Of a stretch of DNA of 64,000 bases, positions 1 to 44,416 are shown one piece after another. The translations under genes were made by a program, and so were the position numbers. The stretch comes from Candidatus Oxydemutatoraceae bacterium (GTDB lineage Bacteria; Pseudomonadota; Gammaproteobacteria; Poriferisulfidales; Oxydemutatoraceae), in contig CBDCOZ010000002.1 in the NCBI GenBank assembly GCA_965220085.1, positions 1 through 64,000 of the forward strand, written 5' to 3'. Numbering within the stretch: the stretch's first letter is position 1; each line of letters opens with the position of its first letter. The notes beneath the pieces were generated by a model. That model saw only the letters and a list, made by a program, of their open reading frames with translations, made no database searches and was not told the origin of the DNA.

Positions 1-1668
1 AATGTCGCGGCGATTGACTCGGTTACCGGGGCGATTGCCTGCCACGACAGCCTCCGAAACACCGAATTCGGCGTCCGGCCGGGCGGGCGCTATGCGCACC
101 ATCACTTCGGCGCAACCCTGCAATACCTCCCGCAACGGACGGAGGCAAACAAGGATGCCTGCTTTGTGTCGCATTGTCCGGACGGGAAAGAGCCGTCCGG
201 ATTCAATATGAACGGCGAAACCGAATGCAAGACTCTGCCGGTGACGGTTCGCGCCATAGCGATGCCGGCAGAGGGCGGGAGCGCGACCATTATGGGCGCG
301 ACCACCGCCTCGGTAGCTCTCAACACCACCGCAACCATCGTCGCCACTCCGGCAAGGGGATGGTATGTCGAGCGATGGGAGGGCGACGACGGCGCCTGCG
401 ACGGACAAACCGGCGGGTTTGGAAGTTCCGGAGCCGCGGACACCGACGAGAAATCTTGTTCGTTGCCCGCCGCCGCCGGACTGACTGTGACGGCGCATTT
501 TGCATCGGCGCTGTGTGTCTACAGCGACCTTCCGGAGGGACTGCAAACCGATTTGGTCTCTCAGCAAGTTGCCGCCTGCAACGCGAAAGGATGGGGCGCG
601 CGAAAACACACTGTCCTCGGAGTCACAACATGCCACTGCAACATCAAAGCGTGGGACGGACAACACGGCGACGCCGCCCGACGATCGTGTTTGGACGGCA
701 CCATTGAGCCGTTCAGAACCTCCTCCTTTTCCCCGCGTGGGTCCGCGGACTCCAACACGGTCGCCACATATCACTTCGGCGCAATGCTGCAACACCTGCC
801 GCAACGGACGGAGGAGAACCGGGACGATTGCTTTGTCGCGCGATGCGCGGACGGGGCGGAACCGTCCGGATTCAACACCGACGGCGAAACCGAATGCCTG
901 GCGGCAAGCGCGCAGGTGTGCCGGGATTTGACGCCGACGAAACACTTTGACGGCGGCGCCTGCGTGGAAAGCTGCGCGATGGCGGCGACATTGAACCCGA
1001 CAACGAATACGTGCGAATGCAACGCGCCGAATATGGGGACGGCGCAGGATTGCAACGCGCCGAGTCCGCAAGTGTGCCGGGATTTGACACCGGCAAAGTT
1101 CTTTAACGGGATGGCCTGCGTTGATTCTCCTTCGTGCGTTCCGCCGACGACATTGAACCCGACGATGAATGTGTGCGAATGCAACGCGCCCAACGAAGGA
1201 ACGGTTTCGGATTGCAGTGCGCCGAGCGCGGAAGTGTGCGCGGGATTGATGCCGGCGGAGTTCTTTGACCAGACGGCGATGGCATGCGTTGATATTCCGG
1301 TTTGCGCCGGGGCGGCGACATTGAACCCGACGACGAATGTTTGCGCATGCAATGCGCCCAACATAGGGACGGCTTCGGATTGCAGGGCGCCAAGCGCGCA
1401 AGTGTGCGGGGATTTGACGCCGGCGAAACATTTTGACGGAATCGCTTGTGTGGAAGACTGCGCGATGGCGGCGACATTGAACCCGACGACGAATGTTTGC
1501 GCATGCAATGCGCCCAACATAGGGACGGCGCAGGATTGCCGCGCACCGAGCGCGCAAGTGTGCGCGGGTTTGACGCCGGCGAAACATTTTGACGGCAGTG
1601 CCTGCGTTGATGCGCCCGCCGACATCAACCTGCGCCTGCGCATCTTCCTGGAAGGCCCGTTGCGATAA
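1..1668 (+). CDS. Cys-rich modular secreted protein, 5'-truncated by the window edge (two CxxxGW variable domains, InlB-B/Flg_new-like domain, Cys repeats, C-terminal INLRLRIFLEGPLR tag)
   Basis: Frame is open from base 1 (NVAAIDS...FGATLQYLP) into the 166..1668 ORF. Paralogous to the ORFs at 19.5 and 23.1 kb. Ends DINLRLRIFLEGPLR*. Confidence 0.8.
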   Translation, partial: NVAAIDSVTGAIACHDSLRNTEFGVRPGGRYAHHHFGATLQYLPQRTEANKDACFVSHCPDGKEPSGFNMNGETECKTLPVTVRAIAMPAEGGSATIMGATTASVALNTTATIVATPARGWYVERWEGDDGACDGQTGGFGSSGAADTDEKSCSLPAAAGLTVTAHFASALCVYSDLPEGLQTDLVSQQVAACNAKGWGARKHTVLGVTTCHCNIKAWDGQHGDAARRSCLDGTIEPFRTSSFSPRGSADSNTVATYHFGAMLQHLPQRTEENRDDCFVARCADGAEPSGFNTDGETECLAASAQVCRDLTPTKHFDGGACVESCAMAATLNPTTNTCECNAPNMGTAQDCNAPSPQVCRDLTPAKFFNGMACVDSPSCVPPTTLNPTMNVCECNAPNEGTVSDCSAPSAEVCAGLMPAEFFDQTAMACVDIPVCAGAATLNPTTNVCACNAPNIGTASDCRAPSAQVCGDLTPAKHFDGIACVEDCAMAATLNPTTNVCACNAPNIGTAQDCRAPSAQVCAGLTPAKHFDGSACVDAPADINLRLRIFLEGPLR

Positions 1669-1724
1669 CTCGCATCACTCCGCCCAAACCAACTGTGAGG
1701 ATGCCTCCTTGCGGGAGGTTTGCG

Positions 1725-2095
1725 ACATCTATAATGTAGTCATGTCTTCTAAAAGTAATCACCCTCCTTTGCGGGGGTTTGCACATTGCCCGCCGTAAGC
1801 GCTCGCAGGAGTCGGCAAGCCACGGGGGCTGACAGCAGGTAGCTTTGTAACATTTATAATGTGGTCGTGCCTTCTAAATGTAATCATGCCTCCCTGCGGG
1901 GGTTTGCACATTGCCGCCGTAAGCGCTCGCAGGAGTCGGCAAGCCACGGGGGCTGACAGCAGGTAGCTTTGTAACATTTATAATGTGGTCGTGCCTTCTA
2001 AATGTAATCATGCCTCCTTTGCGGGGGGTTTGCACATTGCCCGCCGTAAGCGCTTGCAGGAGTCGGCAAGCCACGGGGGCTGACTGGCGGGTAGC
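1725..2095. repeat. ~124-bp tandem repeat (about 3 units) downstream of the tag
   Basis: TATAATGT(A/G)GTC(A/G)TG(T/C)CTTCTAAA recurs at ~1730, ~1855 and ~1979. Units share GCAGGAGTCGGCAAGCCACGGGGGCTGAC. Confidence 0.85.
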
Positions 2096-2275
2096 CTGTG
2101 GCGACAACTCCTCCGACACGCCCCGCAGGCGCAGGTGTGCGCCCCCAAGACTCGGTTGCGCCCGCAGGCGGGTGTGCGGCATCCGGCACAATAAAATGAG
2201 GGCCATACAAAGTTCGCACCCCGCAGGCGCAGGTGTGCGTGTTGCTCGGATGCCCTTGCGGGGGCTTGTTGCATG

Positions 2276-2452
2276 CCATATTCCGATGTGTGGTATACTC
2301 GCGTCCTCGGGGCGAGCAAACATTCCTCAGGCTTGCCCCGTCCGCCGCCATTACGGTGTCTGGTATACTGGGGGCCTCGGGGTGGGCAAACTTACTCCTT
2401 AGGTTGGTTCGCCTCGTCCGTCACCATTACGGTGTTTGATATATTGGTGTCA
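2276..2452 (+). promoter_or_regulatory. Tandem TGGTATACT (extended -10-like) plus hairpin array, 2 full units and 1 terminal unit
   Basis: Units are tggtatact..cctc-GGGG(C/T)G(A/G)GC-loop-G(C/T)T(T/C)GCC(C/T)C-gtcc. Same family at 19273 and 22705. Confidence 0.55.
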
Positions 2453-2468
2453 TTATGATTGAAGTCTT

Positions 2469-4779
2469 ATGCAAGACCTGATTAAAAAGCTGATCAAAAA
2501 GTTGCCCGCGAGTTGTCTGCAAACAGAACCGATGCGCATGAAGTCTCTGCCTGCAAAACAAGGGCTTCCATCGGCACAGCAAGCGTTTCCATATGCCCCC
2601 CCCCCCCCCCCCCCCCCTGATTTTTGCTAGGGTTTGCGCGGTGATGCTCGCTTGCGCCAGTGTCTTCGCCACGAGTAGCGCCCACGCGCAAGCCAACAGC
2701 TGTGCGGCGGTCATCCACGGCACCGAATGCATGGACGCATGCCCCGCCGGATTCACCGCCACAACCCAAGACCGCGTGTGCGTTGAGACCGCGCACATCG
2801 ATGGCGCAAACAAATGCGAAGCCAAAGGATGGACAACCCGACTGACGTTTAACTTCGGTCTTTCCTTTTCCCTTTGCGACATAAAAACCGGCAACCTGAC
2901 ATCAACCAGGGACGTTTGCAGTTTTGGCGCCGGCGGCGGCGGCAGTTGCGTTTTTCGTTTCGGTCCGGATCTTAACTTTCCGCAGCGTCCGGCGGACGAC
3001 CCGGCGACGGCGGAAGACGAGAGCGACCCGCGCTATGTATACAACTGCGACACGGACGGAACCACCGGCCACCTTCCGGCGCGTTTCGTTGATGGGCGGA
3101 CGATGTGCGAATGTCCCGCCGGGGCGACAGAAAACGCAGATGGCGTGTGCACATGTCCGGCGCAAACCGTCCCGCTGGGCGAGGCTTGCCTTCCCAACAC
3201 GCCGGAAAACAGATGCAAAGCGGCGGGATGGACGGTCTCGGCCGACAACCAATGCGTCGTCCCCATCGCCTCTCCGGACGACGGTGATGCAAACGGATGC
3301 TTTTTGACCGGCAACGGCAGTCCGCAATGCGCCGATGTGTTCGGACTGGAGCTGTCGTTTCCAAGCCCGTCGACCGACTCCGCCGCGCGGTTTGTCTACG
3401 ACTGCGGTCTGGACATGATCCCGCCGCGCGCAAACACCGACGGCGCGACCGAATGCGCTCCCGACCCGCAAGCGTGCGCATTCGGCGATTTGGAATTTGT
3501 CGCACATACCAGCACACAGAGCAGGGCGCAAATTTCCATGCAGTTTGATGTCTGCGCGGAGAAAGGATGGCAGGCGAAAAAGCATCCCGATTTTGACTCC
3601 GTCTTTAGGGCTTGCTACTGCGACATAAAAGCATGGGATGTGGAACGCCATGACGCGTGCCCCGACCCCGTCCTTTCCTCCCGCTTCAGCCTTGCGGGCA
3701 ATACCGCCCTGCGCTACTACTTCGGCCCGACTCTGGAGTATCTGCCGCAATGGACGGCGGAAAACGCCGATGATTGTTTTGTGGCCTATTGTCAGGACGG
3801 GACGGAGCCGGCCGGGTTCAACACCAACGGCGCGACCGAATGCCAAACGCCCAGCGGGGAAGTTTGCGGCAGTTTGGATCCGCCGCAGGTTTACAACGGG
3901 TTTGTTTGCGTTGCGACGTGCTCGGCGGAGGCGACATTGGACGAGGCGACGAATACGTGCGAATGCAACACGGGCAATGCGGCGGACTGCCGAGTGCCAA
4001 GCACGGAGGCATGCGCGGATTTTACGCCGCCGCGGTTTTACAACGCGGGCGCGGCGCGGTGCGAACCGTTTTTAACCTGCGAACATCCGACGGAATTGCG
4101 CACGACGAGCAACACCTGCGAGTGCGTTTCTCCGTATGTCGGAACGCCTCCTGGTTGCCAGATGCCGTCGCCGGCGGTTTGCGGGGAATTGAGCGGGCCG
4201 CAGTTTTTCGACGGGACGACCTGCGTCGCCGGTAACCGATGTCCGGCGACAACGCACGCCAACACGGAGTCGCGCCGATGCGAATGCAACGATCGGGGCA
4301 AGGTTTACGACGCCGCGGCACAGGCTTGCGTTGCTGCTATTTCGTGTGCTGCGCCGGCGACATTGAGCGCGGAGACGGGCCAGTGCGCATGCGCTTCGCC
4401 CAACGAAGGGACGGCTTCGGATTGCCGCGCGCCGAGCGCGGAAGTGTGCGCGGGATTGATGCCGGCAAAGTTCTTTGATGTTGGCACGATGGCGTGCGTG
4501 GATGTTGCGCAATGCGCCGGGGCGGCGACATTGAACCCGACAGCGAATGCTTGCGCATGCGCCGCGCCCAACATAGGGACGGCTTCGGATTGCAGGGCGC
4601 CGAGCGCGGAAGTGTGCGCGGCGCAGACACCGGCAAAGTTTTTTGACGTTGGCACAACGGCTTGCGTTGATGTTGCGGAATGCGCCGCGCCGATGGTACT
4701 GGACGAGGCGACGAATACATGCGTGTCCGCCGACATCAACCTGCGCCTGCGCATCTTCCTCGAAGGCCCGTTGCGATAA
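2469..4779 (+). CDS. Cys-rich modular secreted protein with poly-C tract in its leader (likely phase-variable; main ORF 2593..4779)
   Basis: Leader MQDLIKK...PYAPPP from ATG 2469 joins the main ORF if C22 (2596-2617) is C21. Signal-peptide-like VMLACASVFATSSAHA-Q. Three CxxxGW-type domains. Ends DINLRLRIFLEGPLR*. Confidence 0.75.
2596..2617 (+). repeat. Poly-C homopolymer (C22), slipped-strand switch candidate
   Basis: Counted directly. Homologous position to the tracts at 19642 and 23119. Confidence 0.85.
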
Positions 4780-4884
4780 CCCGCACCGCTCCGCTCAAGC
4801 CGTCGGCGCGTCCCGTTTGCTTCCTTCGTCGCATGGGCTTCTTGAACAGCGGTCTGCGGTCGCGACCGACTCCGGCGCGGCAAG

Positions 4885-5036
4885 GGATAAACGGCGACGA
4901 CGCCCGACAATCGTGTTTGAGCGGCTCCTCGGAGCCGTTCAGAACCTCCTCTTTCACGCGCATGGAAGCATAAATTCCAACACGGCCGCCACATTTTACT
5001 TCGGCGCAACGCTACAACACCTGCCGTAACGGACGA
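4885..5036 (+). pseudogene. Silent fragment of the variable CxxxGW domain
   Basis: Translates NGDDARQSCLSGSSEPFRTSS/FHAHGSINSNTAATFYFGATLQHLP*RT with a frameshift and a stop. Homologous to ~665-810 and ~20865-21010. Confidence 0.7.
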
Positions 5037-5142
5037 CAGGGGGATTGCATAATTGGGGGGAAACGCGTATGATTCTCGCTTCAATGGAGACGCACGAGTG
5101 AAAACCGCGCACAACCGCCAAACAAGCAAATGGGCGGAGAAA

Positions 5143-6810
5143 ATGCTCCGTGTCCTCGCGCTCGCCAGCACACTCGCCGCCGTCGTCATCGCGCAACCCG
5201 CGCTCGCGCATACCGACGAATGCGCCGCAGGAGAAACCGCCATCGTCGGAACCGACACCTGCATCGCCGACAACCTCCTGGAATTCGGGGACTGGTGCGA
5301 AAACCAAAACGGAGTGCTAAGCGACCACCTGCGCTTTCCCACTAACGCCCCCGGAAAACGATGCTTCATCACGGGAGACGCCGTCGACGGCGCCGGCCGC
5401 GCCGACTGCGCCCCGTTTGTCTGGATCTCGAACGGAACTTATGTTCCGCCCTCCGAAGTGGTCTCGGTCCCCTTTCTAAATTGCTGGATAGCCAACGACG
5501 CAACCACTTCCGCCTGCCCCAGCGGTGGGTCATACTCCGCCGATTCGCATTCCTGCGTTTGTCCGACGGGGAAGGCGGAGTCCGACGGGGTTTGCAGATG
5601 CACGGGAGGGAAGTTGGACGAGGGCGATGCCTGCGTTGACTCATGCACGGGCGACAATTTGGAGGAGGACGGCTATTGCGTCGCATCGTGTTCGGCGAAC
5701 AATCCGCTGACGGAGAACGGCGCCTGCGTCGCCTCGTGTTCGGTGGCGGAGGAGAACGGCGCCTGCGTTTCCGAATGTTCGGCGGACAATCCGCTGCTGG
5801 AAAACGGAAACTGCGTCGCATCGTGTTCGGCGAACAATCCGCTGACGGAGAACGGCGCCTGCGTCGCCTCGTGTTCGGTGGCGGAGGAGAACGGCGCCTG
5901 CGTTTCCGAATGTTCGGCGGACAATCCGCTGCTGGAAAACGGAAACTGCGTCGCCTCGTGTTCGGCGAACAATCCGCTGACGGAGAACGGCGCCTGCGTC
6001 GCCTCGTGTTCGGTGGCGAAGGAGAACGGCGCCTGCGTTTCCGAATGTTCGGCGGACAATCCGCTAACGGAGAATGGCGCCTGCGTTTCCGAATGCACCG
6101 CACCCAACGAAGAGACGGGTTCGGATTGCAAAGCGCCGAGTACGCAGGTTTGCGCGGCTTTGACGCCGGCGAAGTTTTTTGACGTTGGCACGACGGCCTG
6201 CGTGGATTTTCGTTCCTGCGATGCGCCGATGGTATTGGACGAAGCGACGAATACGTGCACGGTGCCGAAGTTGCGGATTGCGGACACCGATACGAGGGGC
6301 GAGGCCAACACGGCGACGATAGCGGAGGACGCAACGACAGGCACAGCGATAGCGGGTGTGACGCTGGTGGCGACCGATGAGGGTGGCAATACCGTAAGCA
6401 GCGCGACCTGGAGCCTGACCGACTCGAATAATCCCGCCTTGTTCACAATAAACAGCACCAACGGCGCAATCACTTTGGCAACGAGCGGCAAGCCGGACTA
6501 CGCAACCACGCCCACCCATAGCGTAACGGTAACCGCCGCCGCCGACGGTTATGAGCGCGCCGAACTGACACTGACAATCAATGTGCTGAGCGCACAAGCT
6601 TGCGCGGCTTTGACGCCGGCGCAATTCTTTGACGAGACAGCGGCGGCCTGCGTTGACATTCCGGTTTGCGCCGCACCGGCGACATTGAACCCGACGATGA
6701 ATGTGTGCGAATGCGCCGCGCCGATGGTATTGGACGAGGAGACGAATACGTGCGTGTCCGCCAACATCAACTTGCGCCTGCGCATCTTCCTTGAAGGCCC
6801 GTTGCGATAA
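5143..6810 (+). CDS. Cys-rich secreted protein with 45-aa tandem repeats, cadherin-like domain and C-terminal tag
   Basis: Signal peptide MLRVLALASTLAAVVIAQPALA-H. 135-bp repeats at 5677-6096. Cadherin-like segment (IAEDATTGT..ATDE..FTINSTNGAITL..DY..SVTVTA). Ends NINLRLRIFLEGPLR*. Confidence 0.8.
   Translation: MLRVLALASTLAAVVIAQPALAHTDECAAGETAIVGTDTCIADNLLEFGDWCENQNGVLSDHLRFPTNAPGKRCFITGDAVDGAGRADCAPFVWISNGTYVPPSEVVSVPFLNCWIANDATTSACPSGGSYSADSHSCVCPTGKAESDGVCRCTGGKLDEGDACVDSCTGDNLEEDGYCVASCSANNPLTENGACVASCSVAEENGACVSECSADNPLLENGNCVASCSANNPLTENGACVASCSVAEENGACVSECSADNPLLENGNCVASCSANNPLTENGACVASCSVAKENGACVSECSADNPLTENGACVSECTAPNEETGSDCKAPSTQVCAALTPAKFFDVGTTACVDFRSCDAPMVLDEATNTCTVPKLRIADTDTRGEANTATIAEDATTGTAIAGVTLVATDEGGNTVSSATWSLTDSNNPALFTINSTNGAITLATSGKPDYATTPTHSVTVTAAADGYERAELTLTINVLSAQACAALTPAQFFDETAAACVDIPVCAAPATLNPTMNVCECAAPMVLDEETNTCVSANINLRLRIFLEGPLR
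6114..6252 (+). repeat. 139-bp direct repeat, copy 1 (copy 2 at 9133-9271)
   Basis: Visual alignment gives about 5 mismatches. Confidence 0.85.
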
Positions 6811-6934
6811 CCCGCACCACTCCGCTCTGGCGCCGGGCGCGAACACAGACACGCCGAGGAACTTGGCGAAGTCGGTGACGGCGAAGTGAGCGAAACCGTT
6901 TCCCGTCTGGCGCACTTTTGATTTTGCCGGCCTG

Positions 6935-6943
6935 TGATATAAT
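6935..6943 (+). promoter_or_regulatory. Extended -10 promoter (TGATATAAT), probable leaderless MTase mRNA
   Basis: Perfect TGnTATAAT ending 6 nt before ATG 6950. No SD sequence. Confidence 0.55.
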
Positions 6944-6949
6944 GCGGCC

Positions 6950-7984
6950 ATGACAACACGGCGCCCCCAGAAAAACGCCTCCATTCTGTCCCTGTTTTCC
7001 GGCTGCGGAGGACTGGACTTGGGCTTCATGGGCGGCTTTCGCTTTCTCGGCAAAACCTACCCCCGCCTGCCCTTTCAAGTGGTCTGGGCGAACGACATTG
7101 AGCCGACGGCATGCGAGACCTATCGGGCGAATCTCGGCGGGGACATTGTCTGCGGCGACGTCCACGACCACCTTGCCGACATTCCGTCCGCGGACGTGGT
7201 GATTGGCGGCTTCCCCTGTCAGGATGTCTCCATCAACGGCAAGGGGCTGGGCGCGGACGGCGAGCGCACCACGCTTTACGGGGCGATGATTCAAGCCGTC
7301 CGCAAGGCGAGGCCCCGCGCGTTTGTGGCGGAAAATGTGCGCGGACTGCTGATGACGCGGCACGACGGACTGCGAAAGGCCATCATCGCCGGATTCGCCG
7401 ACTTGGGATACCGGCTGGATGTTGACTTGTATCTCGCCGCCGACTACGGCGTCCCGCAGATGCGCGAGCGGGTTTTCATTGTCGGCACCAGAAAGGACGG
7501 GAGGCCGTTTGCGCCGCCCTCGGCGCCGCTTTCCCGCGGCAACTGGATTACCGCCCGCGCCGCGCTGGAGGATTTGGAGGGCGCGGAGGAGGGCGCCGTT
7601 GCCAACCACATTTGGAGCAGGGCGAAGCGCGGCGCGGAGCAGGGAAACCGGACGCTGAAAGCCGACCGCCCCGCCGCCACCATCCGCGCCGAATGCCACG
7701 GACACATTCAGTTTCATTACGCCCTGGACCGCCGCATTTCCATGCGCGAGGCGGCCCGGTGCCAGTCCTTCCCCGACCATTTCGCCTTCAAGGGCGGCAT
7801 CCGGCAGATTGAGCGGCAGATTGGCAACGCCGTGCCGCCGGTGATGGGCTGGCACATGGCCAAGTCGGTGCTTGCCGCGCTGGCATGGCCCGCGAAGAAT
7901 TTGAGGCCTTTCTGGACGAGGAGCAAAGCGCCTCGGCCGGGATGTTCGCGACAGCCGCAAATACCACGAGGCGGGGGCCTTTGA
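6950..7984 (+). CDS. dcm: DNA (cytosine-5)-methyltransferase
   Basis: Motifs FSGCGG (I), GGFPCQ (IV), ENV (VI), QxRxR (VIII), REAARCQSFP (IX) and QIGNAVPP (X). Confidence 0.95.
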   Translation: MTTRRPQKNASILSLFSGCGGLDLGFMGGFRFLGKTYPRLPFQVVWANDIEPTACETYRANLGGDIVCGDVHDHLADIPSADVVIGGFPCQDVSINGKGLGADGERTTLYGAMIQAVRKARPRAFVAENVRGLLMTRHDGLRKAIIAGFADLGYRLDVDLYLAADYGVPQMRERVFIVGTRKDGRPFAPPSAPLSRGNWITARAALEDLEGAEEGAVANHIWSRAKRGAEQGNRTLKADRPAATIRAECHGHIQFHYALDRRISMREAARCQSFPDHFAFKGGIRQIERQIGNAVPPVMGWHMAKSVLAALAWPAKNLRPFWTRSKAPRPGCSRQPQIPRGGGL

Positions 7985-8807
7985 AAATCATGTCCTGCGG
8001 GTGATGCAGGAGGTCGCCCACCGGCGCGGACTGCGAATCAATCCGACCAACCACCCCCACGCCTTCCCCGACATCAAGGCCGACGGATTCGGAGTGGAGG
8101 TCAAAAGCACCCGTCAGGACAATTGGAGCGCGCCGGCGAACAGCATTCTGGAGTCCATGCGCGACGAGGACGCCGTCCACCATGTCCGCATCTCGCACGC
8201 CCCGCGCTTTGTCGTCGGCATGGACACGCCGCAAGGCGGCTCCCTGTTCGACAAAATCGGCGTGACATACGAGGAGTTTGCGCGGAAAACCCCGTCGGAA
8301 AAAATGGAGGAGGTGCGGAAATACGCCCGCAGCCGCCTACAGCCGGGGGAGCGGCTGTGGTGGCTGGAGGAGCATCACGCGGTTGACTTGGAAATCCGCC
8401 GCTTTCAGGAATTGGACGACGCGAAAAAGCGGCAAGTTCGCGCCGAAGCCGCCGCGCTTTGCCCCGAAATTGTGGGGCCCGCCCGACAACAAAACAAATA
8501 CGACGGGGCCCTCAAATTCCTTGTCGCGTATCACGGCGTCTTGGCGGCCCGCGACATGTTCACGGCGGGAAGTGTCGGCGCGCCGGACGGACATCGGGGC
8601 GGGGGATATATGCAAAACAGTTTGACGGACATTCAGGCGGAGATGATAACGGCGTTTCAGGAACTGGACGGCAAACTCTTTGAGGAATACTGGCCGCGCG
8701 GGACGGACATCCCCGACAACGCGGAGGGGCGAAAGCGCCAATGGCTCGCCCTCGCCGACGAGATGGCGCAAGGGGAATGGACCCCGTCCGACATCCTGTT
8801 TCGCTAA
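7885..8807 (+). pseudogene. Putative type II restriction endonuclease (PD-(D/E)xK), frameshifted near 7920
   Basis: FPDI...FGVEVK motif in ORF 8001..8807. Its frame extends upstream (KRLGRDVRDSRKYHEAGAFENH), while the plausible start MAREEFEAFLDE at 7885 is in another frame. Adjacent to the MTase. Confidence 0.6.
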
Positions 8808-8856
8808 CCCCCCGCGCCCCCGACAAATTCGGGCCGGATTGGGACTGCGGCGCGCC

Positions 8857-9015
8857 CTACGCAAAATACGCAATCGCCCCAATCACCGCCGACGCCGCGC
8901 ACATCGCCAAACCCAAAAAGCGCAACTGTCCCGGCGCCATCTCGCTCATCTGCGCCATCCGACGCCGAAAGAAATCCGGCCACAACAGCGGAACTGCCCC
9001 CTGCTTCATGGACAT
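8857..9015 (-). pseudogene. DUF2065/YjeT-like small membrane protein fragment
   Basis: Hand translation MSMKQGAVPLLWPDFFRRRMAQMSEMAPGQLRFLGLAMCAASAVIGAIAYFA* resembles the C-terminal part of DUF2065. Confidence 0.45.
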
Positions 9016-9109
9016 AATACGGTCCCCTTTCATCCCAGACTTCGGTGAATTGGAGACAGCCCTGAGCAGGCGCGATTTTCAGGTATTGGAATGGATGCAA
9101 GGCCAATAC

Positions 9110-9334
9110 GCATGCCATGCGCCAAACATCGTGACGGGTGCGGATTGCAAAGCGCCGAGTACGCAGGTTTGCGCGGCTTTGACGCCGGCGCGGTTTTTTG
9201 ACGTTGGCACGACGGCCTGCGTGGATTTTCGTTCCTGCGATGCGCCGATGGTATTGACCGAAGCGACGAATGCATGCGTGTCCGCCGACATCAACTTGCG
9301 CCTGCGCATCTTCCCGGAGGGGTCGTTGCAATAA
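9110..9334 (+). pseudogene. Orphan C-terminal relic of the Cys-rich family with degenerate tag (INLRLRIFPEGSLQ)
   Basis: Near-identical to 6114-6252, then a tag with 3 non-synonymous changes. No signal peptide. Confidence 0.75.
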
Positions 9335-9725
9335 CCGGCATCACTCCAAGCCAACCATGATGACGCCTTGCGCGGGCTTTGCGACACTTATAATGTGGCC
9401 GTGTCTTCTAAAAGCGATCACTCCTGCCGGAGTTTGCTACCGTCCGAATTGCGAATTGCGCGGTGATGGCGATTACGCCTCCTTGCGCAGGCTTGCGCAA
9501 ACGTGCCGACACGAATACGCCCGCGAAGGGAGTGCGCACGGCTACGCAGGCTTGCGCAAACGCGCCGACAGGGACGCACCCGCAAGAGAGTGTTATGCTA
9601 CAATCCGATTATTGTGGCAGGGCGGACAATGCGCCCCCACAAAGGAATGTTCGTTAGCGCGAGCCAGTGAGTGCGAGCGCTCCCCCCGCGAGAGGAGAGG
9701 GTGGACAGAGGCAAGAAAGATATAA

Positions 9726-12700: not shown

Positions 12701-14425
12701 GTCTCCCGTCCGGGTGCGCCGCGGGTCTCGGTCGAGATGTCGGCTTTGGGGCGGGCGGAGTTGGAGTGGGAAGCGTCCGAAGTTGCGGCGGCTTCCTCTG
12801 CCACTGTGCGGATTAGCAGCTATTCCATTTTGCGGCGGGAGACGGGCGGCGAAGCGGTTGTGGTCGGGGCGACAACGGCGACGACTTACACCGACGCAGA
12901 CGCGCCGCAGGAGAAGAAGGTGCAATATCAAATTCGCACCGAATATGCGGAGACATCGACAGCGACGGAGAGACTCACATTGACTTCGTTTTTCTCGGAG
13001 GCGGTGCGCATTCCCGGTTGCGCGGATGCCGGCCATTCGGAGGTTGCGCGGCCAAACGAGGATCCGCTTTGTGTGCCGGATGAAGCGCATACGCAGGCGC
13101 AAGCGTGCACGGATGCGGGATGGCGCGTTCTCTATCGCAAGCCGCTGTCGCCAAACGGTCATGTGCGTTGCAACATCGGCGTGCGCGATGCGCAAAGCGG
13201 CAGCGAAAGCCACTGCGGAATTCTGGGGAACAATCCGACGATGTGCTCGGAATTGTTCGGCTCGCCGCCGGTTTTTCCGACTTACGCGGGGTCTGTGCGG
13301 CAGTATGTCGTGAACTGCGCCGAGGACCGGTTGCCGGACCCGGCTTATGAGTCGCAAAATTCGCCGCGGCAAGAGTGCGTTTGTGCAGAGGGGTATTTTG
13401 AAGATGGCGGGCAATGCAATACGTGCGGGTCGATCGGGCGCAAGGGGGTTTCGGGGCAGCCGGGGGTTTGCGCAGAGGGTGCGGACAGTTGCACGGCGAG
13501 GGCGACATTTAATACGGAGACGAATGTTTGCGACTGCACCGGAAGCGCGGGTTGTCTGGCGCCGAGTGAAGATGTTTGCGCGGGATTGACGCCTGAGAGG
13601 TTTTTTGACGGGGCGGAGTGTGTTGATGTTGCTTCCTGTACCGCGCCGGCGATGTTGAACAGGGTGACGAATGTGTGCGAATGCAATGCGCCAAACGTGG
13701 GGGGGACAGCTTCGGATTGCAGGGCGCCCAGCGAACAGGTCTGCGATGGTTTGACCCCGGCGAAGTTCTTTGACGGGACAGCCTGCGTTGATTTTACTTC
13801 CTGCGCCGCACCGATGATATTGGACGAAACAACGAATGTTTGTAAGACGCCGAGTACGGATACTTGCGCGGGGTTGACACCTGCGAAGTTCTTTGACGAG
13901 GAAGAGACGGAGTGCGTTGATTTTGTTTCCTGTACCGCGCCGATGATATTTGACGAAACAACGAATGTTTGTAAGACGCCGAGTACGGATACTTGCGCGG
14001 GGTTGACACCTGCGAAGTTCTTTGACGAGGAAGAGACGGAGTGCGTTGATTTTGTTTCCTGTACCGCGCCGATGATATTTGACGAAACAACGAATGTTTG
14101 TAAGACGCCGAGTACGGATACTTGCGCGGGGTTGACACCTGCGAAGTTCTTTGATGTCGGCGAGGCGGAGTGCGTGGATCTTGTTTCCTGCACCCCGCCG
14201 ATGGTACCGGACATGGCAACGAATACGTGCGCGGCGCCGAGCGAGCAAGTTTGCGCGGCGCAGACGCCGCCGAAGTTCTTTGACGAGTCAACGACGACCT
14301 GCATCGATTTTGTTTCGTGCGACGACGCGTCAATGACGTTAGACCGAGCGACGAATGCCTGCGTTGAGGGGCCCGACAACATCAACCTGCGTCTGCGCAT
14401 CTTTCTGGAAGGCCCGTTGCGATAG
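9726..14425 (+). CDS. Large Cys-rich secreted protein with two FN3-like domains, several Cys-repeat types and C-terminal tag
   Basis: Signal-like MAVTIALVTVAAFAVNFSVVPTAAA-H. FN3-like segments PINLSVRVVSPGNVEISW..YYMVER and PRVSVEM..LEWE..YSILRR..TYTD. CxxQNRxQ..Y.CGxC repeats. 126-bp near-exact repeats at ~13790-14160. Ends NINLRLRIFLEGPLR*. Start uncertain (9671/9726/9791). Confidence 0.8.
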
Positions 14426-14709
14426 CGGCCTCCCAAGCCCCGCCGCTCTCCCTTCGCCAGAATGCTTTGCGCTTCAAACTCAGGTTAAAGCGCCTTTGAA
14501 ACATCACTCTCCCCCAGTGGGAGGCACATCAAAAGGGCGGGCCGGTGCGGCACCTGCGATGAAGCATGACCAGCGGGGACGGTTATGCCACTGGCGTAGG
14601 TGACGGGCGGCGCATCACCCGCGATGAGGCATGACCCGGAAGCGGGAGCAAAGCACCAAAGGCAGATCCGGCGTAGCCGCCGGTTTATCCCAAGCGGCGG
14701 GTTGCGGGC

Positions 14710-16155: not shown

Positions 16156-16189
16156 GACTTGCGACCTTCAAACAATCTAGCATACAAAG

Positions 16190-17512
16190 CGTAAGCACTC
16201 AGATGGCGCATGTCAACTCGCCCAGCCGCCGGCTCAGCTTCATGTTCTCGCGATAGTCTGTCGGCACCACCGCCAGACTCGGCCCGGCGGTGGCAAACGC
16301 CTGTCGCAGGCCGTCCGCCAACTCGCCGCTGTTTGTTATGCGCAACCCCTGCCAGCCAAAGGCCGCCGCCAGCTGCATCCAATCCGGATTGCCAAAACTC
16401 AGCGGCGCAGCGTAAGCGCTCAGATGGCGCATGTCAACTCGCCCAGCCGTCGGCTCAGCTTCATGTTCTCGCGATAGTCTGTCGGCACCACCGCCAGACT
16501 CGGCCCGGCGGTGGCAAACGCCTGTCGCAGGCCGTCCGCCAACTCGCCGCTGTTTGTTATGCGCAACCCCTGCCAGCCAAAGGCCGCGGCCAGTTGCATC
16601 CAGTCCGGATTGCCAAAACTCAGCGGCGCAGCGTAAGCGCTCAGATGGCGCATGTCAATTCGCCCAGCCGTCGGCTCAGCTTCATGTTCTCGCGATAGTC
16701 TGTCGGCACCACCATCAGGCTCGGCCCGGCGGTGGCAAACGCCTGTCGCAGGCCGTCGGCCAACTCGCCGCTGTTTGTTATGCGCAACCCCTGCCAGCCA
16801 AAGGCCGCGGCCAGTTGCATCCAGTCCGGATTGCCAAAACTCAGCGGCGCAGCGTAAGCGCTCAGATGGCGCATGTCAATTCGCCCAGCCGTCGGCTCAG
16901 CTTCATGTTCTCGCGATAGTCTATCGGCACCACCATCAGGCTCGGCCCGGCGGTGGCAAACGCCTGTCGCAGGCCATCGGCCAACTCGCCGCTGTTTGTT
17001 ATGCGCAACCCCTGCCAGCCAAAGGCCGCCGCCAGTTGCATCCAGTCCGGATTGCCAAAACTCAGCGGCGCAGCGTAAGCGCTCAGATGGCGCATGTCAA
17101 TTCGCCCAGCCGTCGGCTCAGCTTCATGTTCTCGCGATAGTCTGTCGGCACCACCATCAGGCTCGGCCCGGCGGTGGCAAACGCCTGTCGCAGGCCGTCG
17201 GCCAACTCGCCGCTGTTTGTTATGCGCAACCCCTGCCAGCCAAAGGCCGCGGCCAGTTGCATCCAGTCCGGATTGCCAAAACTCAGCGGCGCAGCGTAAG
17301 CGCTCAGATGGCGCATGTCAATTCGCCCAGCCGTCGGCTCAGCTTCATGTTCTCGCGATAGTCTATCGGCACCACCATCAGGCTCGGCCCGGCGGTGGCA
17401 AACGCCTGTCGCAGGCCGTCGGCCAACTCGCCGCTGTTTGTTATGCGCAACCCCTGCCAGCCAAAGGCCGCGGCCAGTTGCATCCAGTCCGGATTGCCAA
17501 AACTCAGCGGCG
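16190..17512 (-). repeat. 221-bp tandem repeat x6 consisting of the ALS 3' end
   Basis: The stop-codon context recurs at 16199, 16420, 16641, 16862, 17083 and 17304. Units differ by a few SNPs. Confidence 0.95.
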
Positions 17513-18953: not shown

Positions 18954-19269
18954 GGGCGTATCCTCCTGCGCGATGGACTGCCATCATAACCGCAAACCCT
19001 CCGCTTGACAATGCCCCGGATGGTGTCCGGACATAGCGGACACGTGGGGCGATAGAAACCTTGGCCACCGCAGCCGATGGGTTGCTATTGCAGCGTGTTG
19101 TGTTGAAGCCGGGAATCCGGAATGCTTCCGGCATTATGCATGACAACTCGTGGTGATGTCAGGAGTCCGGAATGTTTCCGGCATCGTGCATCACACCGCG
19201 AGCGCTCCTCGCGCGCCATCCCCTCAGTGCGTGCTCGGGCGCTTTTGTGAAGACTCCCTGCGCGCCGCC

Positions 19270-19502
19270 GCCATTCCAATGTCTGGTATACTGTGTCCTC
19301 GGGGTGAGCACTCCGGGCTCACCCCGTCCGTCATCGTTCCAGTGTCTGGTATGCTAGTGTCCTCGGGGCGGGCAAATGTTGCTCCTTGTGGCTCGCCCCG
19401 TCTGTCATCGTTCCAATGTCTGGTATACTAGTGTCCTCGGGGCGGGTAAACGTTACTCCTTGTGGCTCGCCCCGTCTGCCACCATTGCGGTGTTTGATAT
19501 GC
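19270..19502 (+). promoter_or_regulatory. Tandem extended -10 plus hairpin array (3 units and a terminal unit)
   Basis: ttccaatgtctggtatact..gtcctc followed by GGGG..CCCC stems. Confidence 0.55.
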
Positions 19503-19526
19503 CAGAGTTATTATGATCGAAGTCTT

Positions 19527-21940
19527 ATGCAAAACCTGATTAAAAAATTGCCTGCAAGTTGCCTGCAAACAGAACCGATGCGCATGAAGTCTCTGCCTGC
19601 AGAACGAGCGCTTCCATCGGCGAAGCAAGCGCTTCCATATGCCCCCCCCCCCCCCCCTTAATTTTTGCTAGAGTTTGTGCCTCATTAAAACATTGTTTGC
19701 GTGCATTGTGCGCGGCGATGCTCGCTTGCGCTGGTGTCTTTGCCGCGAACACCGCACACGCACAAAGCGAACAATCCAACTGCACATTCAGCGAGGTCGC
19801 CTCTTCCGTCCACTCCTCCGCGCGCGAGCAGGTCTCCCGAATGTTCGACGCCTGCGCGGAAAAGGGATGGGCCATCTTCAAATCCCCCGCCTTTGACATC
19901 GTGCAAGAGTGCTACTGCAATGTCAAGGCGCGGGACGCGTCCCAGCCGGAGCATAATGACTGCCGGAGTTATATTCCCTCCTCCCGGCTGATTTCCAACG
20001 CGGGCAAGCGGCAACTGCACCATTACTTCGGCGCGACCCTGCAGTATCTTCCGGAGCGGACGGAGGAAAACAAGGACGCCTGCTTTGTGGCGCATTGTCC
20101 GGATGGGAAGGAGCCGTCGGGGTTTAATATGAACGGCGAAACCGAATGCGCAACGCCCTCAACGGCGGTGACGGTTCGCGCCATAGCGATGCCGGCAGAG
20201 GGCGGGAGCGCTGCCATTATGGGCGCGACCACCGCCTCGGTGATTCTCAACACCACCGCAACCATCGTCGCCACTCCGGCGGAGGGATGGTATGTCGATC
20301 GGTGGGAAGGCGACGGCGGCGCTTGCGACGGTCAAACCGGCAGGCTCGAAGGTTTCAGGGGCGTGGACACAGACGAGAAATCTTGTTCGCTGCCCGCCGG
20401 CGCCGGACTGACTGTGACGGCGCATTTTGCGTTGGCGCGGGTGACGGTTCGCGCCATAGCGATGCCGGCGGAAGGCGGGAGCGCTGCCATTATGGGCGCG
20501 ACCACCGCCTCGGTGATTCTCAACACCACCGCAACCATCGTCGCCACTCCGGCGGAGGGGTGGTATGTTGACCGATGGGAGGGGGACGGCGGGGCCTGCG
20601 CCGGACAAGTTGGCGGGTTTGGAAGTTCCGGAGCGGCGGACACGGATGAAAAATCCTGCTCGCTGGCCGCGAGCGCCGGACTGACTGTGACGGCGCATTT
20701 CGCATCGGCGCTTTGTGTCTACGACGAGCTTCCGGCGGGACTGCAAACCGTTGCTGTCGACCAACAGATTGACGCGTGCAACGCGAAAGGATGGGGGGCG
20801 CGCAAACACATTGTCGGCGGAAGCACATTGTGCCACTGCAACATCAAGGCGTGGGACGGGAGGCGCGGCGACCCGGCCCGGCAATCGTGTTTGGACGGCT
20901 CCCTCCCGCCGCATCGAACCTCCGAGTTTTCCGCGCGTGGAGACACAGATGCCAACACGGCCGCGACATATTACTTCGGCGCGACCCTGCAACATCTTCC
21001 GGAGCGGACGGAGGGAAACAAGGACGATTGTTTTGTGGCGCGATGTCCGGGGGCGACGGAACCGTCCGGATTCAACACCGGAGGCGAAACCGAATGCCGA
21101 GCGCCAAGCGGGGCGGTTTGCGGGGGTTTGACTCCGGCGAAACATTTTGACGGCGTTGTCTGCGTGGAAAGTTGCGCAACGGGGGCGACATTGAATGCGG
21201 CGACGAATGTTTGCGAATGCGACACGGGAAATTCGGACGATTGTTTAACGCCGAGCGAGGAGGTTTGCGCGGCGCTGACTCCGCCGAAGTTTTTTGACGG
21301 GTCGGATTGCGTTGATTTTGCGACTTGCGCGGGGCTGTTGACTTTGAATCGGCAACGTAACGGGTGCGAGTGCCGCACGCCGAATAGGGGAACGCCTTCA
21401 AACTGTCTTGCGCCGAATCCGGTTGTTTGCGCCGCGCCGGCGGTTCGGCATCCGACGGCGAATGTTTGCCAATGCAATGCGCCGAATGTGGGGACAGGTG
21501 CGGATTGCAAAGCGCCCAGCGAGACGGTTTGCGGGGATTTGATGCCGGCGCAATTCTTTGACGAGACGATGTGCATTGATTTTGTTTCGTGTGATGCGCC
21601 GATGGTGTTGGACACAGCGATGAATATGTGCGCGGCACCGAGCGAGGAAGTGTGCGCGGATTTGATGCCGGCGAAATTCTTTGACGAGACGATGTGCGTT
21701 GATTTTGTTTCCTGCGATGCGCCGATGGTATTGAATACGGCGACGAATATGTGCGCGACACCGAGCAAGGAAGGGTGCGCGAGTTTGACGCCGGCGAAAT
21801 TCTTTGACGAGACGATGTGCGTTGATTTTGTTTCCTGCGATGCGCCGATGGTGTTGGACACAGCGATGAATACGTGCGTTGAGGCGTCCGACAACATCAA
21901 CTTGCGTCTGCGCATCTTTCTTGAAGGCCCGTTGCGATAA
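19527..21940 (+). CDS. Cys-rich modular secreted protein, poly-C leader (likely phase-variable; main ORF in track 19559..21940)
   Basis: Leader MQNLIKKLPAS...PYAPPPPP from ATG 19527 joins the main frame if C16 (19642-19657) is C17 or C14. Signal MLACAGVFAANTAHA-Q. Two CxxxGW domains and two InlB-B-like domains. Ends in the tag. Confidence 0.78.
19642..19657 (+). repeat. Poly-C homopolymer (C16)
   Basis: Counted directly. Confidence 0.85.
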
Positions 21941-21989
21941 CCCGCATCACTCCGCCCAAGCCAACTGTGATCACGCCTTCTTGTGCGGG

Positions 21990-22212
21990 CATTGCAATCG
22001 CTTTGCCACCGATTGCGCACATTTTCACTGAGCGCTCCCCTTTGCAAGCGGCGGCGCTTCGGCAATGTCGGCGGCAACGGTTACTCCTTGCGCAGGCTTT
22101 GCGATTGCTTTGCCGCCGATTGCGCACATTTTCACTGAGCGCACCCCCTTTGCAGGCGGCGACGCTTCGGGCAGTGTTGTCGGCAACGATTACTCCTTGC
22201 GCAGGCTTTGCA
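21990..22212. repeat. ~108-bp imperfect tandem duplication
   Basis: gctttgcc(a/g)ccgattgcgcacattttcactgagcgc occurs twice. Confidence 0.8.
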
Positions 22213-22695
22213 CATTTATAATGTGTCATGTCTTCTAAAAGCGATTATGCCTCTTTTGCCCAACTATGATTACGCCTCCCTGCGGGCTTTGCGCATTGCT
22301 CGCCGTAAACACTCTTGCCTCGCAGGAGTCGGCAAGCCACGGGGGGCAACCGGCAGGCAGCTTGGCAACACTTATGAATGTGTCATGTCTTCTAAAAGTA
22401 ATCACCCCTCCTTTGCGGGGGCTTTGCGCATTGCCCGCCGTAAACACTCTTGCCTCGCAGGAGTCGGCAAGCCACGGGGGGCGACCGGCAGGCAGCTTGG
22501 CAACACTTATGAATGTGTCATGTCTTCTAAAAGTAATCACCCCTCCTTTGCGGGGGCTTTGCGCATTGCCCGCCGTAAACACTCTTGCCTCGCAGGAGTC
22601 GGCAAGCCACGGGGGGCGACCGGCAGGCAGCTTGGCAACACTTATGAATGTGTCATGTCTTCTAAAAGCGATTACGCTTCCTTTGCGGGGGCTTG
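22213..22695. repeat. 135-155-bp tandem repeat array (about 4 units)
   Basis: AATGTGTCATGTCTTCTAAAAG at ~22220, 22377, 22512 and 22647. Confidence 0.9.
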
Positions 22696-22702
22696 TTGTG
22701 CG

Positions 22703-23012
22703 CCGCCGTTCCAATATCTGGTATACTGTGCCCTCGGGGCGAGCAGACATTCCTCAGGCTTGCCCCATCCGCCACCATTCCAATGTCTGGTATACTGTGT
22801 CCTCGGGGTGAGCACTCCGGGCTCACCCCGTCCGTCACCATTCCAGTGTCTGGTATGCTAGTGTCCTCGGGGCGGGTAAATGTTGCTCCTTGTGGCTCGC
22901 CCCGTCTGTCACCGTTCCAATGTCTGGTATAATGGTGTCCTCGAGGCGGGCAAACTTGTTTCTCGGCCCGCCTCGTCCGTCACCATTGTGGTGTTTGATA
23001 TGCCGGTGTCAT
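22703..23012 (+). promoter_or_regulatory. Tandem extended -10 plus covarying hairpin array (4 units and a terminal unit)
   Basis: Stems ggggcgagc/gcttgcccc, ggggtgagc/gctcacccc, ggggcgggt/gctcgcccc and gaggcgggc/gcccgcctc. One unit has a perfect TGGTATAAT. Confidence 0.6.
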
Positions 23013-23027
23013 TATGATTGAAGTCTC

Positions 23028-25161
23028 ATGCAAAACCTGATTAAAAATTGTCTGCAAGCAGAACCGATGCGCATCACATATCCGCTCGCAAACAAGCGGT
23101 TCCGTGTGTATCATATAGCCCCCCCCCCCCCCCCTAATTTTTGCCAGAGTTTGCGCGGTGCTGTTTGAGAAGCACCTTTGGTCGTCGCTTGTCAGTGGCT
23201 TAATTCGTAACTGGACTTGCGCGGTGCTGTTTGTTTGTGTCTTCGCCACAAACACCGCACACGCACAAGCCGACCAATCCAACTGCGCGCTCAGCGACGC
23301 CGTCACCGAGTTTCCCTCCTCCGCGCACGCGCAAATTTCCCAGCAGTTTAACGCTTGCGCGAACAACGACTGGGCTGTGCTGAAGCATCCCGGCTTCGGC
23401 TTCGGGGCGAACCTTGACCGCTGCTACTGCAACATCAAGGTGCGGGACGCGACTTTGCATTCCGCCAACTGTAGCCACCCCTCTCAAACTTCCGTATTCA
23501 GCGTCACCGAAAGTATCGGCAACCTCCGCTATCACTTCGGCGCAACATTGCAACACCTGCCGCGGCGGACGGAGGAAAACAAGGACGCCTGCTTTGTGTC
23601 GCACTGTCCGGACGGGGAAGAGCCGTCCGGATTTAATACGAATGGCGCAACCGAATGCGCAACGCCCTCAACGCCGGTGACGGTTCGCGCCATAGCGATG
23701 CCGGCGGAGGGCGGGAGCGCTGCCATTATGGGCGCGACCACCGCCTCGGTAATTCTCAACACCACCGCGACCATCGTCGCCACTCCGGCGAAGGGATGGT
23801 ATGTCGATCGGTGGGAAGGCGACGGCGGCGCTTGCGCCGAACAAACCGGCAGGCTCGGAGGTTTCAGGGGCGTGGACACAGACGAGAAATCTTGTTCGCT
23901 GCCCGCCAGCGCCGGGCTGACTGTGACGGCGCATTTTGCGTTGGCGCGGGTGACGGTTCGCGCCATAGCGATGCCGGCGGAAGGCGGGAGCGCTGCCATT
24001 ATGGGCGCGACCACCGCCTCGGTAATTCTCAACACCACCGCGACCATCGTCGCCACTCCGGCGGAGGGATGGTATGTCGATCGGTGGGAGGGCGAAGGCA
24101 ACGCATGCGCCGGACAAACCGGCGGGTTTGGAAGTTCCGAAGTCGCGGACACGGACGAGAAATCTTGTTCGTTGCCCGCCAGCGCCGGACTGACTGTGAC
24201 GGCGCATTTCGCATCGGCGCTTTGTGTCTACGACGAGCTTCCGGCGGGACTGCAAACCGTTGCTGTCGACCAACAGATTAACGCGTGCAACGCGAAAGGA
24301 TGGAGCGCGCGCAAACACATTGTCAGCGGAGTCACATTATGCCACTGCAACATCAAGGCGTGGGACGGGGGGAACGGCGACCCCGCCCGACAGTCGTGTC
24401 TGAACGGCTTATGGCCGCCGCACCAAACCTCGGGCTTTCACGCGCGCGGAGACACGAACTCCAATTTGTTTGCCCCATTTTACTTTGGCGCAACCCTGCA
24501 ACACCTTCCGCAACGGACGGAGGAAAACCAGAATGATTGTTTTACAGCGCGATGCGCGGGCGGGGCGGAACCGTCGGGATTCAACACCGACGGCGAAACC
24601 GAATGCCAGGCGGCAAGTGCGCAGGTGTGCGGGGATTTGACGCCGACGAAACACTTTGACGGCGGCGCCTGCGTGGAAAGCTGCGCGATGGCGGCGACAT
24701 TGAACCCGACAACGAATACGTGCGAATGCAACGCGCCGAACGTGGGGACGGCGCAGGATTGCAGAACCGCCACGCCGGCGAACTGCGAACGTTTGCAAGG
24801 GACTCAATTTTTCGACGGGACGACTTGCGTTCAAACTTGTCCGGGGGCCTCGGTCGGAAACACGCAGACGCATGAGTGCGAATGTCTTGCGTCGAATACG
24901 GGGACAGTTTCGGACTGTCGCGCGCCGGACGGGGGGACGGAGCCGGTTGTTTGCGCGGGGGTAGCGGTTCGGAATCCGACGGCGAATGTTTGCGAATGCA
25001 AATTGCCGAATGTGGGGACGGGTTCGGATTGCAAGGCGCCGAGCGCGGAAGTTTGCGCGGATTTGACACCGCCGAAGTTCTTTAACAGGATGGCCTGCGT
25101 CGATGCGCCCGACGACATCAACTTGCGTCTGCGCATCTTTCTTGAAGGCCCGTTGCGATAA
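23028..25161 (+). CDS. Cys-rich modular secreted protein, poly-C leader (likely phase-variable; main ORF 23158..25161)
   Basis: Leader MQNLIKNCLQAEPMR...IAPPPP from ATG 23028 joins the main frame if C16 (23119-23134) is C15 or C18. Signal AVLFVCVFATNTAHA-Q. Same architecture as 19527. Ends in the tag. Confidence 0.78.
23119..23134 (+). repeat. Poly-C homopolymer (C16)
   Basis: Counted directly. Confidence 0.85.
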
Positions 25162-25189
25162 CCGACATCACGCCGCCCAAGCTCACTGT

Positions 25190-39021: not shown

Positions 39022-39256
39022 GTGCCTTGTTTCGCCCCGCCATGCTTGCAAAAGTTGGGTTGCGATACCGCTCGTCGTATCGGATGCGGCCGTTTGTCTG
39101 ATAGATCAAGATCAGCTTCCACTTATGTGCTAGAGTGCTCCCGCTCTAGCAAATGGAAGCAATGACATGAAATTACCACATGGAATAACATATAAGATAG
39201 AGGAGAGTCTCAGGCTCCCCTGGGGTCTGTTATACTTTAACAAACCACTCTGGCGG

Positions 39257-44389: not shown

Positions 44390-44416
44390 AAAGATCAAAG
44401 TGTATTGAGACAAGAA

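Follow-up and report, generated by a model that had tools for sequence, protein, structure and literature searches.

Signals that sort many different bacterial proteins by one device (LPXTG, PEP-CTERM, GlyGly-CTERM and the type IX C-terminal domain) are old and widely distributed, and each works with an enzyme of its own; the last of them is a folded unit of roughly 70-100 residues. The opening 64,000 nucleotides (the window) of contig CBDCOZ010000002.1 from a Candidatus Oxydemutatoraceae bacterium (assembly GCA_965220085.1) present a contrast. Six genes there encode Cys-rich proteins with the same 14 C-terminal amino acids, ending FLEGPLR, and a first reading of the letters alone (the original prediction) took this tag for a candidate sorting or docking signal. 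The tag is young, confined to one species and without a visible partner, yet is under extreme purifying selection across a fifth of the genome. The reading favored here, tentatively, is that it is a portable surface-retention tag of Sec/type II-exported proteins, whose repertoire has phase-variation-like poly-C tracts.

The GlyGly-CTERM/rhombosortase signal is carried by type II-secreted, surface-retained proteins such as VesB of Vibrio cholerae (PMC6219818, PMC3237569, PMC13393428). A V. cholerae serine protease is reported to need both GlyGly-CTERM and rhombosortase (PMC6219818) and to stay on the cell surface as an effector of type II secretion (PMC13393428). The tag is like GlyGly-CTERM in being a short terminal signal on many differently built exported proteins with a probable link to type II secretion and surface retention. 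The two are also interchangeable between protease paralogues of 71% identity, in a genome that has a rhombosortase. GlyGly-CTERM, however, is strictly C-terminal and tripartite, with a Gly/Ser motif, a transmembrane helix and a basic cluster. The tag lacks all three parts, has Arg at alternate positions, is also found N-terminally and is known from one species only.

No other known signal family is matched either, a defining feature of each being absent. The beta-domain of type Va autotransporters has the same C-terminal place on large adhesin-like proteins with extended leaders, the frames examined in a sister family (f2) are weakly similar at the domain level to tagged cargo, and the alternation in the tag resembles one membrane beta-strand. 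It differs in having about 300 residues rather than 14 and an aromatic end rather than Arg, and much of the tagged cargo is Cys-rich, unlike autotransporter passengers. The type IX C-terminal domain is likewise a C-terminal signal common to scores of unrelated surface proteins per genome, but it is a folded domain in place of 14 amino acids; the tag has no NCBIfam match, a search that did not extend to the type IX machinery. PEP-CTERM gives no NCBIfam match on eight tagged sequences at E<=10 and its architecture is absent, as is an LPXTG-like motif with helix and basic tail from the residue table of 216 tag copies, a search not extended to a sortase gene. Type I signals also fit poorly, the leaders being of Sec type and the motif N-terminal in three proteins; TolC is present, while ABC and MFP partners were not searched for.

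The source assembly (2,492,841 bp, 99% complete; genome G000 in our labeling, with the window being C2:1-64000 and other contigs cited likewise) has 216 open frames with C-terminal x-[LIV]-x-LRLR[LIV]FLEGPLR-stop, counted with the pattern F[LIVM]EG[PAS][LIVM][RK]-stop. At least 120 amino acids are encoded by 187 of them and the longest reaches 15,193. From their first start codons they sum to 160,285 amino acids, about 19% of genome bases, which is an upper bound since true starts may sit further downstream. Among frames of at least 100 amino acids, 188 end in the 6-mer LEGPLR, and the runner-up occurs 13 times. A degenerate DNA pattern has 211 matches in the genome as against 0 for its reversed control, so chance is excluded as the source of the copies. 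Among the last seven positions F, E, G, L and the terminal R are invariant in all 216 copies, with L at -6 in 215 and P in 214. Further upstream R-11, L-10 and R-9 hardly vary, position -8 takes L, I or V, and R predominates at -13 (160/216). Read as a strand, one face would present L, L, L/I/V and L, with aliphatic swaps tolerated, and the other an invariant R, R, F and E. The residue table has no hydrophobic run of more than one residue, and the absence of a transmembrane helix and of a terminal aromatic residue, both already asserted in the original prediction, is borne out in all copies. Tagged proteins have the tryptic peptides LFLEGPLR, IFLEGPLR and VFLEGPLR in common, a ready proteomic handle. 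A full-text literature search for FLEGPLR, LFLEGP and RLRLFLEG returned only an unrelated duck proteomics paper.

It is the peptide, and not the DNA, that selection maintains. This had been argued from synonymous and stop codon differences among the window copies, and alignment of the seven window sites does have such differences, with both TAA and TAG stops; genome-wide all three types are used (TAG 137, TAA 51, TGA 28). Across the 188 long copies the last 12 codons have 741 synonymous and 62 non-synonymous differences, 54 of the latter being L/I/V swaps at -8. For the last seven codons the figures are 438 and 2, where 76 of 108 single-base changes would be expected to be non-synonymous. Pairs of copies have on average 0.80 nucleotide identity within the tag, against 0.31 in the preceding and 0.32 in the following 42 nt. 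The case for peptide-level selection rests on this excess of synonymous differences, the near-random flanks and the use of all stop codons.

A peptide-independent nhmmer profile of the 45-nt unit finds 280 places in the genome, of which 216 are intact, about 20 are degenerate and the others are partial copies within tandem tail arrays. Thirteen of 14 degenerate copies are on open frames of 15-216 amino acids and one (G to D) is on a frame of 532, and amino-acid changes in the tag are confined almost wholly to truncated relics. The first six bases 3′ of the stop are semi-conserved (CGCGAR), with the first 6-14 nt at 60-80%, and some longer elements further 3′ recur across cargo classes; tag and 3′ flank have thus probably been spread jointly by recombination. 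In the tail arrays (C3:513720-514188, 908934-909438, 648598-648886 and 1659748-1660524) each unit holds the tag's 3′ half with the stop and some bases beyond it; units are about 56-168 bp long, occur in up to about 15 copies and give strings of mini-frames ending ...LEGPLR or ...LEGRLR.

The 90 residues upstream of the tag fall into 12 sequence classes: cadherin/He_PIG-like sandwiches (n=79), a 'GKYIRVCASFKDQ' type (n=42), a 'YVFNCGAGM...GATEC' type (n=36), the Cys-rich type of the window (n=11), giants of up to 15,193 amino acids (n=11), PPC-repeat proteins (n=2) and singletons (n=6), the last including two S8 subtilases with Calx-beta domains. By our count at least eight of the 12, two Cys-rich types among them, are unrelated module types. 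The six window proteins had been called differently built, and this has to be amended: they are mosaic paralogues of one Cys-rich class with long segments in common and differ by mosaic arrangement only, the unrelated cargo being elsewhere in the genome. Domain assignments made for them hold in part, as Pfam gives weak Cadherin matches, below cut-off, and weak Flg_new_2/InlB-B ones, and no FN3 at E<=0.01. On visual inspection and a crude hydrophobicity rule, leaders of tagged proteins are of Sec type, as had been proposed. Cys makes up 5-8% of residues in 47 tagged proteins but 0.2-0.4% in f2 autotransporter passengers, and the Cys count is even in 126 of 187; both features fit periplasmic folding and export of folded disulfide-bonded proteins.

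Three proteins, two with PPC repeats and one S1-like protease, have the motif N-terminally. In each, the signal peptide is followed by NPMTVPQDVLTIAQA, a short stretch of residues, L[RK]LRLRVFLEGPLR and a GGS linker, and therefore the motif requires neither a free carboxylate nor a C-terminal place. AlphaFold2 models the last class-0 domain as a beta-sandwich (predicted local distance difference test score, pLDDT, 83) followed by the tag as low-confidence coil; for the N-terminal tag with its PPC domain, the domain has pLDDT 73-91 and the tag, below 50, has no secondary structure. In both models the tag looks like a free tail that may await a partner. The PPC domain was considered as an in-cis receptor for the tag, which is unsupported as the N-terminal tag is placed nowhere by AlphaFold2. 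With the class-0 domain as query, Foldseek matched nothing at E<=0.001, the rows beyond that being weak and cadherin- or Ig-like.

A short terminal add-on that plugs interchangeable subunits onto a common partner is also what donor-strand complementation (in chaperone-usher and type V pili) and cohesin-dockerin pairing have in common with the tag. The domains that adjoin the tag are modeled as complete beta-sandwiches with a free tail. No incomplete-fold acceptor was identified for a donor strand, which the original prediction had put forward, beside an outer-membrane export signal, as a possible mechanism. The non-hydrophobic face of known donor strands is not known to be invariant, unlike that of the tag. 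Lipopolysaccharide-binding amphipathic beta-strands of the Limulus anti-lipopolysaccharide factor type alternate basic and hydrophobic residues and occur as hairpins in folded proteins or antimicrobial peptides. The tag has the same alternation of Arg and Leu, but its invariant FLEGPLR half is without counterpart there.

What stands in the tag's place elsewhere is informative. The class-0 query has only weak domain matches, in large frames of family f2, and those examined (in genome G034) have a typical autotransporter barrel end (...LQLQGRW) and poly-Pro leaders as in the tagged genes. The barrel is present in 16 of 16 f2 genomes, in 1-13 copies per genome and terminating frames that reach 12,365 amino acids, and in 0 of 18 genomes of the tagged organism's own family. 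In its own genome PF03797 is not found above cut-off and tblastn with relatives' barrels gives weak remnants only. GspL, by comparison, is in all 18 own-family relatives and in the tagged genome, and in 0 of 16 f2 genomes. The barrels of the giant f2 autotransporters (e.g. in G034, G024, G022 and G019) are barely recognized by Pfam PF03797.

The second replacement is seen inside the tagged genome. Over 481 amino acids the N-tagged S1-like protease shares 71% identity with a paralogue that has an ordinary signal peptide and a GlyGly-CTERM-like end, in which a Gly-run is followed by a hydrophobic stretch and basic residues; the PPC protein adjoining that paralogue has the same kind of tail. Together with the f2 barrels, this shows that the tag substitutes for two known surface-anchoring devices, in keeping with the portable sorting or anchoring behavior originally predicted. 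The rhombosortase (C3:475041-475553; TIGR03902, 93.7 bits where the cut-off is 84) is assigned to the two GlyGly-like tails and nothing ties it to the tag; a homologue, with about five GlyGly-CTERM-like tails, is also found in G006, from the nearest genus sampled. The islands at C3:1160929-1173515 and C1:23868-39449, where N-tagged proteins stand beside paralogues with GlyGly-CTERM-like tails, also hold a PPC lipoprotein-like gene and TraT-like lipoproteins.

In all the genomes, metagenomes and protein libraries searched, the tag is known from one species only. The degenerate pattern has 0 matches in 60 relatives (18 of the same family), in 185,579 species genomes and in a metagenome collection, and a relaxed pattern has 0 in the same species genomes and metagenomes, collections that may leave out the window's own genome, and 0 in 400 other genomes of the class. 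A profile of 14 tails gave 55 matches at E<=0.001 among 1.84 billion protein representatives, all at least 99.4% identical to frames of the genome itself. A likeness put forward in the original prediction, to an xKVFLEGP strand of Bacteroidota surface proteins, is not upheld, as that search returned only the organism's own proteins. Confinement to recently duplicated paralogues, which had been held up in advance as telling against a sorting signal, is not found; confinement to a single species is. In G006 no C-terminal peptide is over-represented, with its top 6-mer occurring 7 times as against 188 for LEGPLR in the tagged genome. The tag DNA profile has insignificant matches only (E 0.06 or worse) in 29 relatives' loci, of which a recurring one overlies the barrel strand PRLRISLRHDGG; origin of the tag from a barrel strand is an idea rather than a finding.

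Homologues of the window Cys-rich proteins in other assemblies (P0063-P0070) are 29-40% identical and have no tag, ending instead in a different Cys-rich module, whose common form is FPCRGLFKHLRSCN.EFNR.ALNPFFCG. Relative to G006, 797 of 2,021 frames of the tagged genome are without a match, and 92 of these are untagged, signal-peptide-like and at least 150 amino acids long. At C3:189880-337636 are at least 10 secreted S1-like protease paralogues of 276-351 amino acids, most ending ...NRYCSDSN and with no G006 match.

Homopolymers of 9-28 nt in the tagged genome are nearly all C or G (n=90), with a single tract each of A and T. A 5′ C tract (C8-C28) is present in 81-84 of the 187 longer tagged genes. 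It follows a short conserved leader (ATGAAxCGACAAxTTTTTAATAC) and precedes the signal peptide, so that tract length would set the reading frame, and such a long homopolymer 5′ in the coding region is what characterizes contingency loci. The layout suggests slipped-strand phase variation. As assembled, 21 of these genes have the leader ATG in frame and 51 have it out of frame, while in 12 no leader ATG was found, individual on/off states being unreliable since homopolymer lengths in assemblies are error-prone. CCPPPPP leaders on some of the P0063-P0070 homologues mean that poly-C switches on Cys-rich cargo are not confined to this genome.

A complete gsp operon (gspC-D-A-B-E-F...J-K-L) is present in the genome together with a pilus-type secretin cluster, a single Omp85 and a single TolC; TpsB and CsgG were not found there. 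Because type II systems export folded proteins, such a system fits the cargo described above. Surface retention might then work as follows. Tagged proteins would cross the inner membrane by way of their signal peptides and, many being Cys-rich, would fold in the periplasm, with the type II secretion system conserved in the family as their probable exit. As a free and flexible end the tag would dock, most likely as an extended amphipathic beta-strand, on a shared conserved envelope component, for example an outer-membrane protein or the lipopolysaccharide core, and so would retain a variable repertoire on the cell surface. It may be, though we hold this too with less than even confidence, that a minimal 14-residue anchor, with no transmembrane helix and usable at either terminus, has in a single symbiont lineage taken over the role of barrels and GlyGly-CTERM in about 200 genes that make up a fifth of the genome, docking on a conserved envelope component in a way unlike any described sorting system. 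A reduced genome would then have swapped some 200 barrels of about 300 amino acids for a 14-residue peptide, and the tag would mark a surface coat that is varied, in a symbiont, through slippage at poly-C tracts. It would be a natural universal 'plug' and a very small surface-display tag, and would mean that whole surface repertoires can change anchoring chemistry.

Several points weigh against surface retention by such docking. Restriction to one species is unusual for a signal with dedicated machinery, and no receptor or processing enzyme was identified in the genome. Its type II proteins equal those of tag-less relatives in size (12 relatives' loci), with no extra domain specific to it, and all envelope candidates checked have G006 homologues; therefore nothing co-occurs with the tag, and the co-occurring machinery envisaged in the original prediction did not materialize among these candidates. 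Giants of 6,000-15,000 amino acids are not known as type II cargo, and the N-terminal leader of the two tagged subtilases may be an uncleaved membrane anchor, which fits release through a secretin badly. Conservation of both strand faces is also better accommodated by a tight protein site or a barrel wall than by loose lipopolysaccharide binding. One acidic outer-membrane barrel, P0057, was chosen for its alternating acidic and hydrophobic strands and is not tag-specific, since it is present in 13 of 18 family relatives without the tag. The 92 exported untagged frames specific to the genome relative to G006 include protease and coiled-coil families, with no evident acceptor.

Of the competing explanations the foremost, though itself unlikely, is that the tag recruits cargo rather than anchors it, with GspC, GspD or the pseudopilus tip reading it as a linear signal for translocation across the outer membrane by the type II system. 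No general route other than that system was found for Sec-exported folded proteins and Cys-rich cargo suits it, and the PDZ domain of EpsC is reported to be required for VesB secretion (PMC12369372). The lack of any extra domain in the type II proteins relative to tag-less relatives is awkward for it, as is the N-terminal occurrence of the motif without a free carboxylate, and what the tag replaces, a barrel and a GlyGly-CTERM-like tail, are anchors and not secretion signals. Improbable, and ranked next, is a recognition or cleavage site for an unrecognized sorting enzyme that would attach the proteins covalently to lipid, lipopolysaccharide or glycan in the manner of sortase, PorU or rhombosortase. 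Seven invariant terminal residues are as an enzyme site would be, the unit ends exactly at PLR in both its C- and N-terminal forms, and genome-specific secreted S1-like proteases are many. But no sortase-like or novel candidate enzyme co-occurs (the sortase gene itself was not searched for), cleavage at an N-terminal tag would set the cargo free, and there is no transmembrane segment to keep the substrate at a membrane enzyme.

Placed after that, with little probability, is a self-complementary beta-zipper by which tagged proteins would cross-link into a coat or matrix. The residue pattern allows antiparallel pairing centered on -8, with R-11 opposite E-5 and R-9 opposite F-7; both faces are conserved, and as no separate receptor would be needed the absence of co-occurring genes would be natural. 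No tool gave positive evidence for it, however, and a coat would still need attachment to the cell. A host-directed role, as a common epitope or receptor ligand on all the variable surface proteins of a symbiont, agrees with the species specificity of the tag but not with its replacing bacterial anchoring devices, and is rated as more doubtful again. Last, and highly improbable, is conservation at the level of DNA or RNA, as a mobile repeat, recombination site or 3′ regulatory element to which the peptide is incidental. The semi-conserved bases after the stop, the tag halves within tandem tail arrays and the downstream elements common to cargo classes speak for this, but it is contradicted by the 438 to 2 ratio in the last seven codons, by the use of three stop codons, by the near-random identity of the flanks and by intact copies being always in frame at the ends of long frames. 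Docking for surface retention thus stays the reading preferred here.

Six-frame translation of the window gives exactly six frames that end INLRLRIFLEGPLR-stop, their stops being the 3′ limits in the table below. These and a relic are where the original prediction had placed them, save that its tag ranges were one codon too long upstream. The relic is 75% identical to the C-terminal 75 amino acids of the 728-residue protein and is considered a relic because nothing beyond those residues of the neighboring family is matched.

Tagged genes, relic and C tracts in the 64,000-nucleotide window
Feature	Positions	Strand	Tag and stop	Remarks
Cys-rich tagged gene	1..1668	+	1624-1668	5′ end cut at window edge; weak Flg_new_2 match
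Cys-rich tagged gene, 728 aa	2593..4779	+	4735-4779	signal-peptide-like stretch
C22 tract of 728-aa gene	2596-2617	+		after ATG, read as poly-Pro; leader ATG in frame, ON in assembly
Cys-rich tagged gene, 585 aa from first start codon	5053..6810	+	6766-6810	weak cadherin match
Truncated Cys-rich-family relic	8741..9334	+	9290-9334	degenerate tag INLRLRIFPEGSLQ-stop; 216-aa open frame
Cys-rich tagged gene, 1584 aa	9671..14425	+	14381-14425	stop TAG
Cys-rich tagged gene, 793 aa open frame	19559..21940	+	21896-21940
C16 tract of 793-aa gene	19642-19657	+		leader ATG out of frame, OFF in assembly
Cys-rich tagged gene, 667 aa (23158-25161)	23119..25161	+	25117-25161	preceded by C16 tract 23119-23134

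An element of about 70-100 nt, partly in tandem, is found 3′ of four of the seven window tags (within 1669-1900, 9335-9566, 21941-22172 and 25162-25393), with the shared sequence CACTCCGCCCAAGCCAACTGTGA...TATAATGT...TCTAAAAG.AATCAC. Between a tagged gene and the relic, at 6950-8807, a C-5 cytosine DNA methylase (PF00145, E 3e-63) adjoins a 268-aa frame without Pfam match, and the two may be a restriction-modification pair inserted in the tagged cluster. At 16210-17361, frames of 162 amino acids begin each 221 bp (16210, 16431, 16652, 16873 and 17094), which indicates a tandem array of about five 221-bp units. Further on, at 39167-50300, is a defence-type run with DUF4007, a 1116-aa frame without Pfam match, a PAPS-reductase-like gene, GmrSD_N with HNH, an 808-aa frame and an AAA_21/AbiEii-like ATPase.

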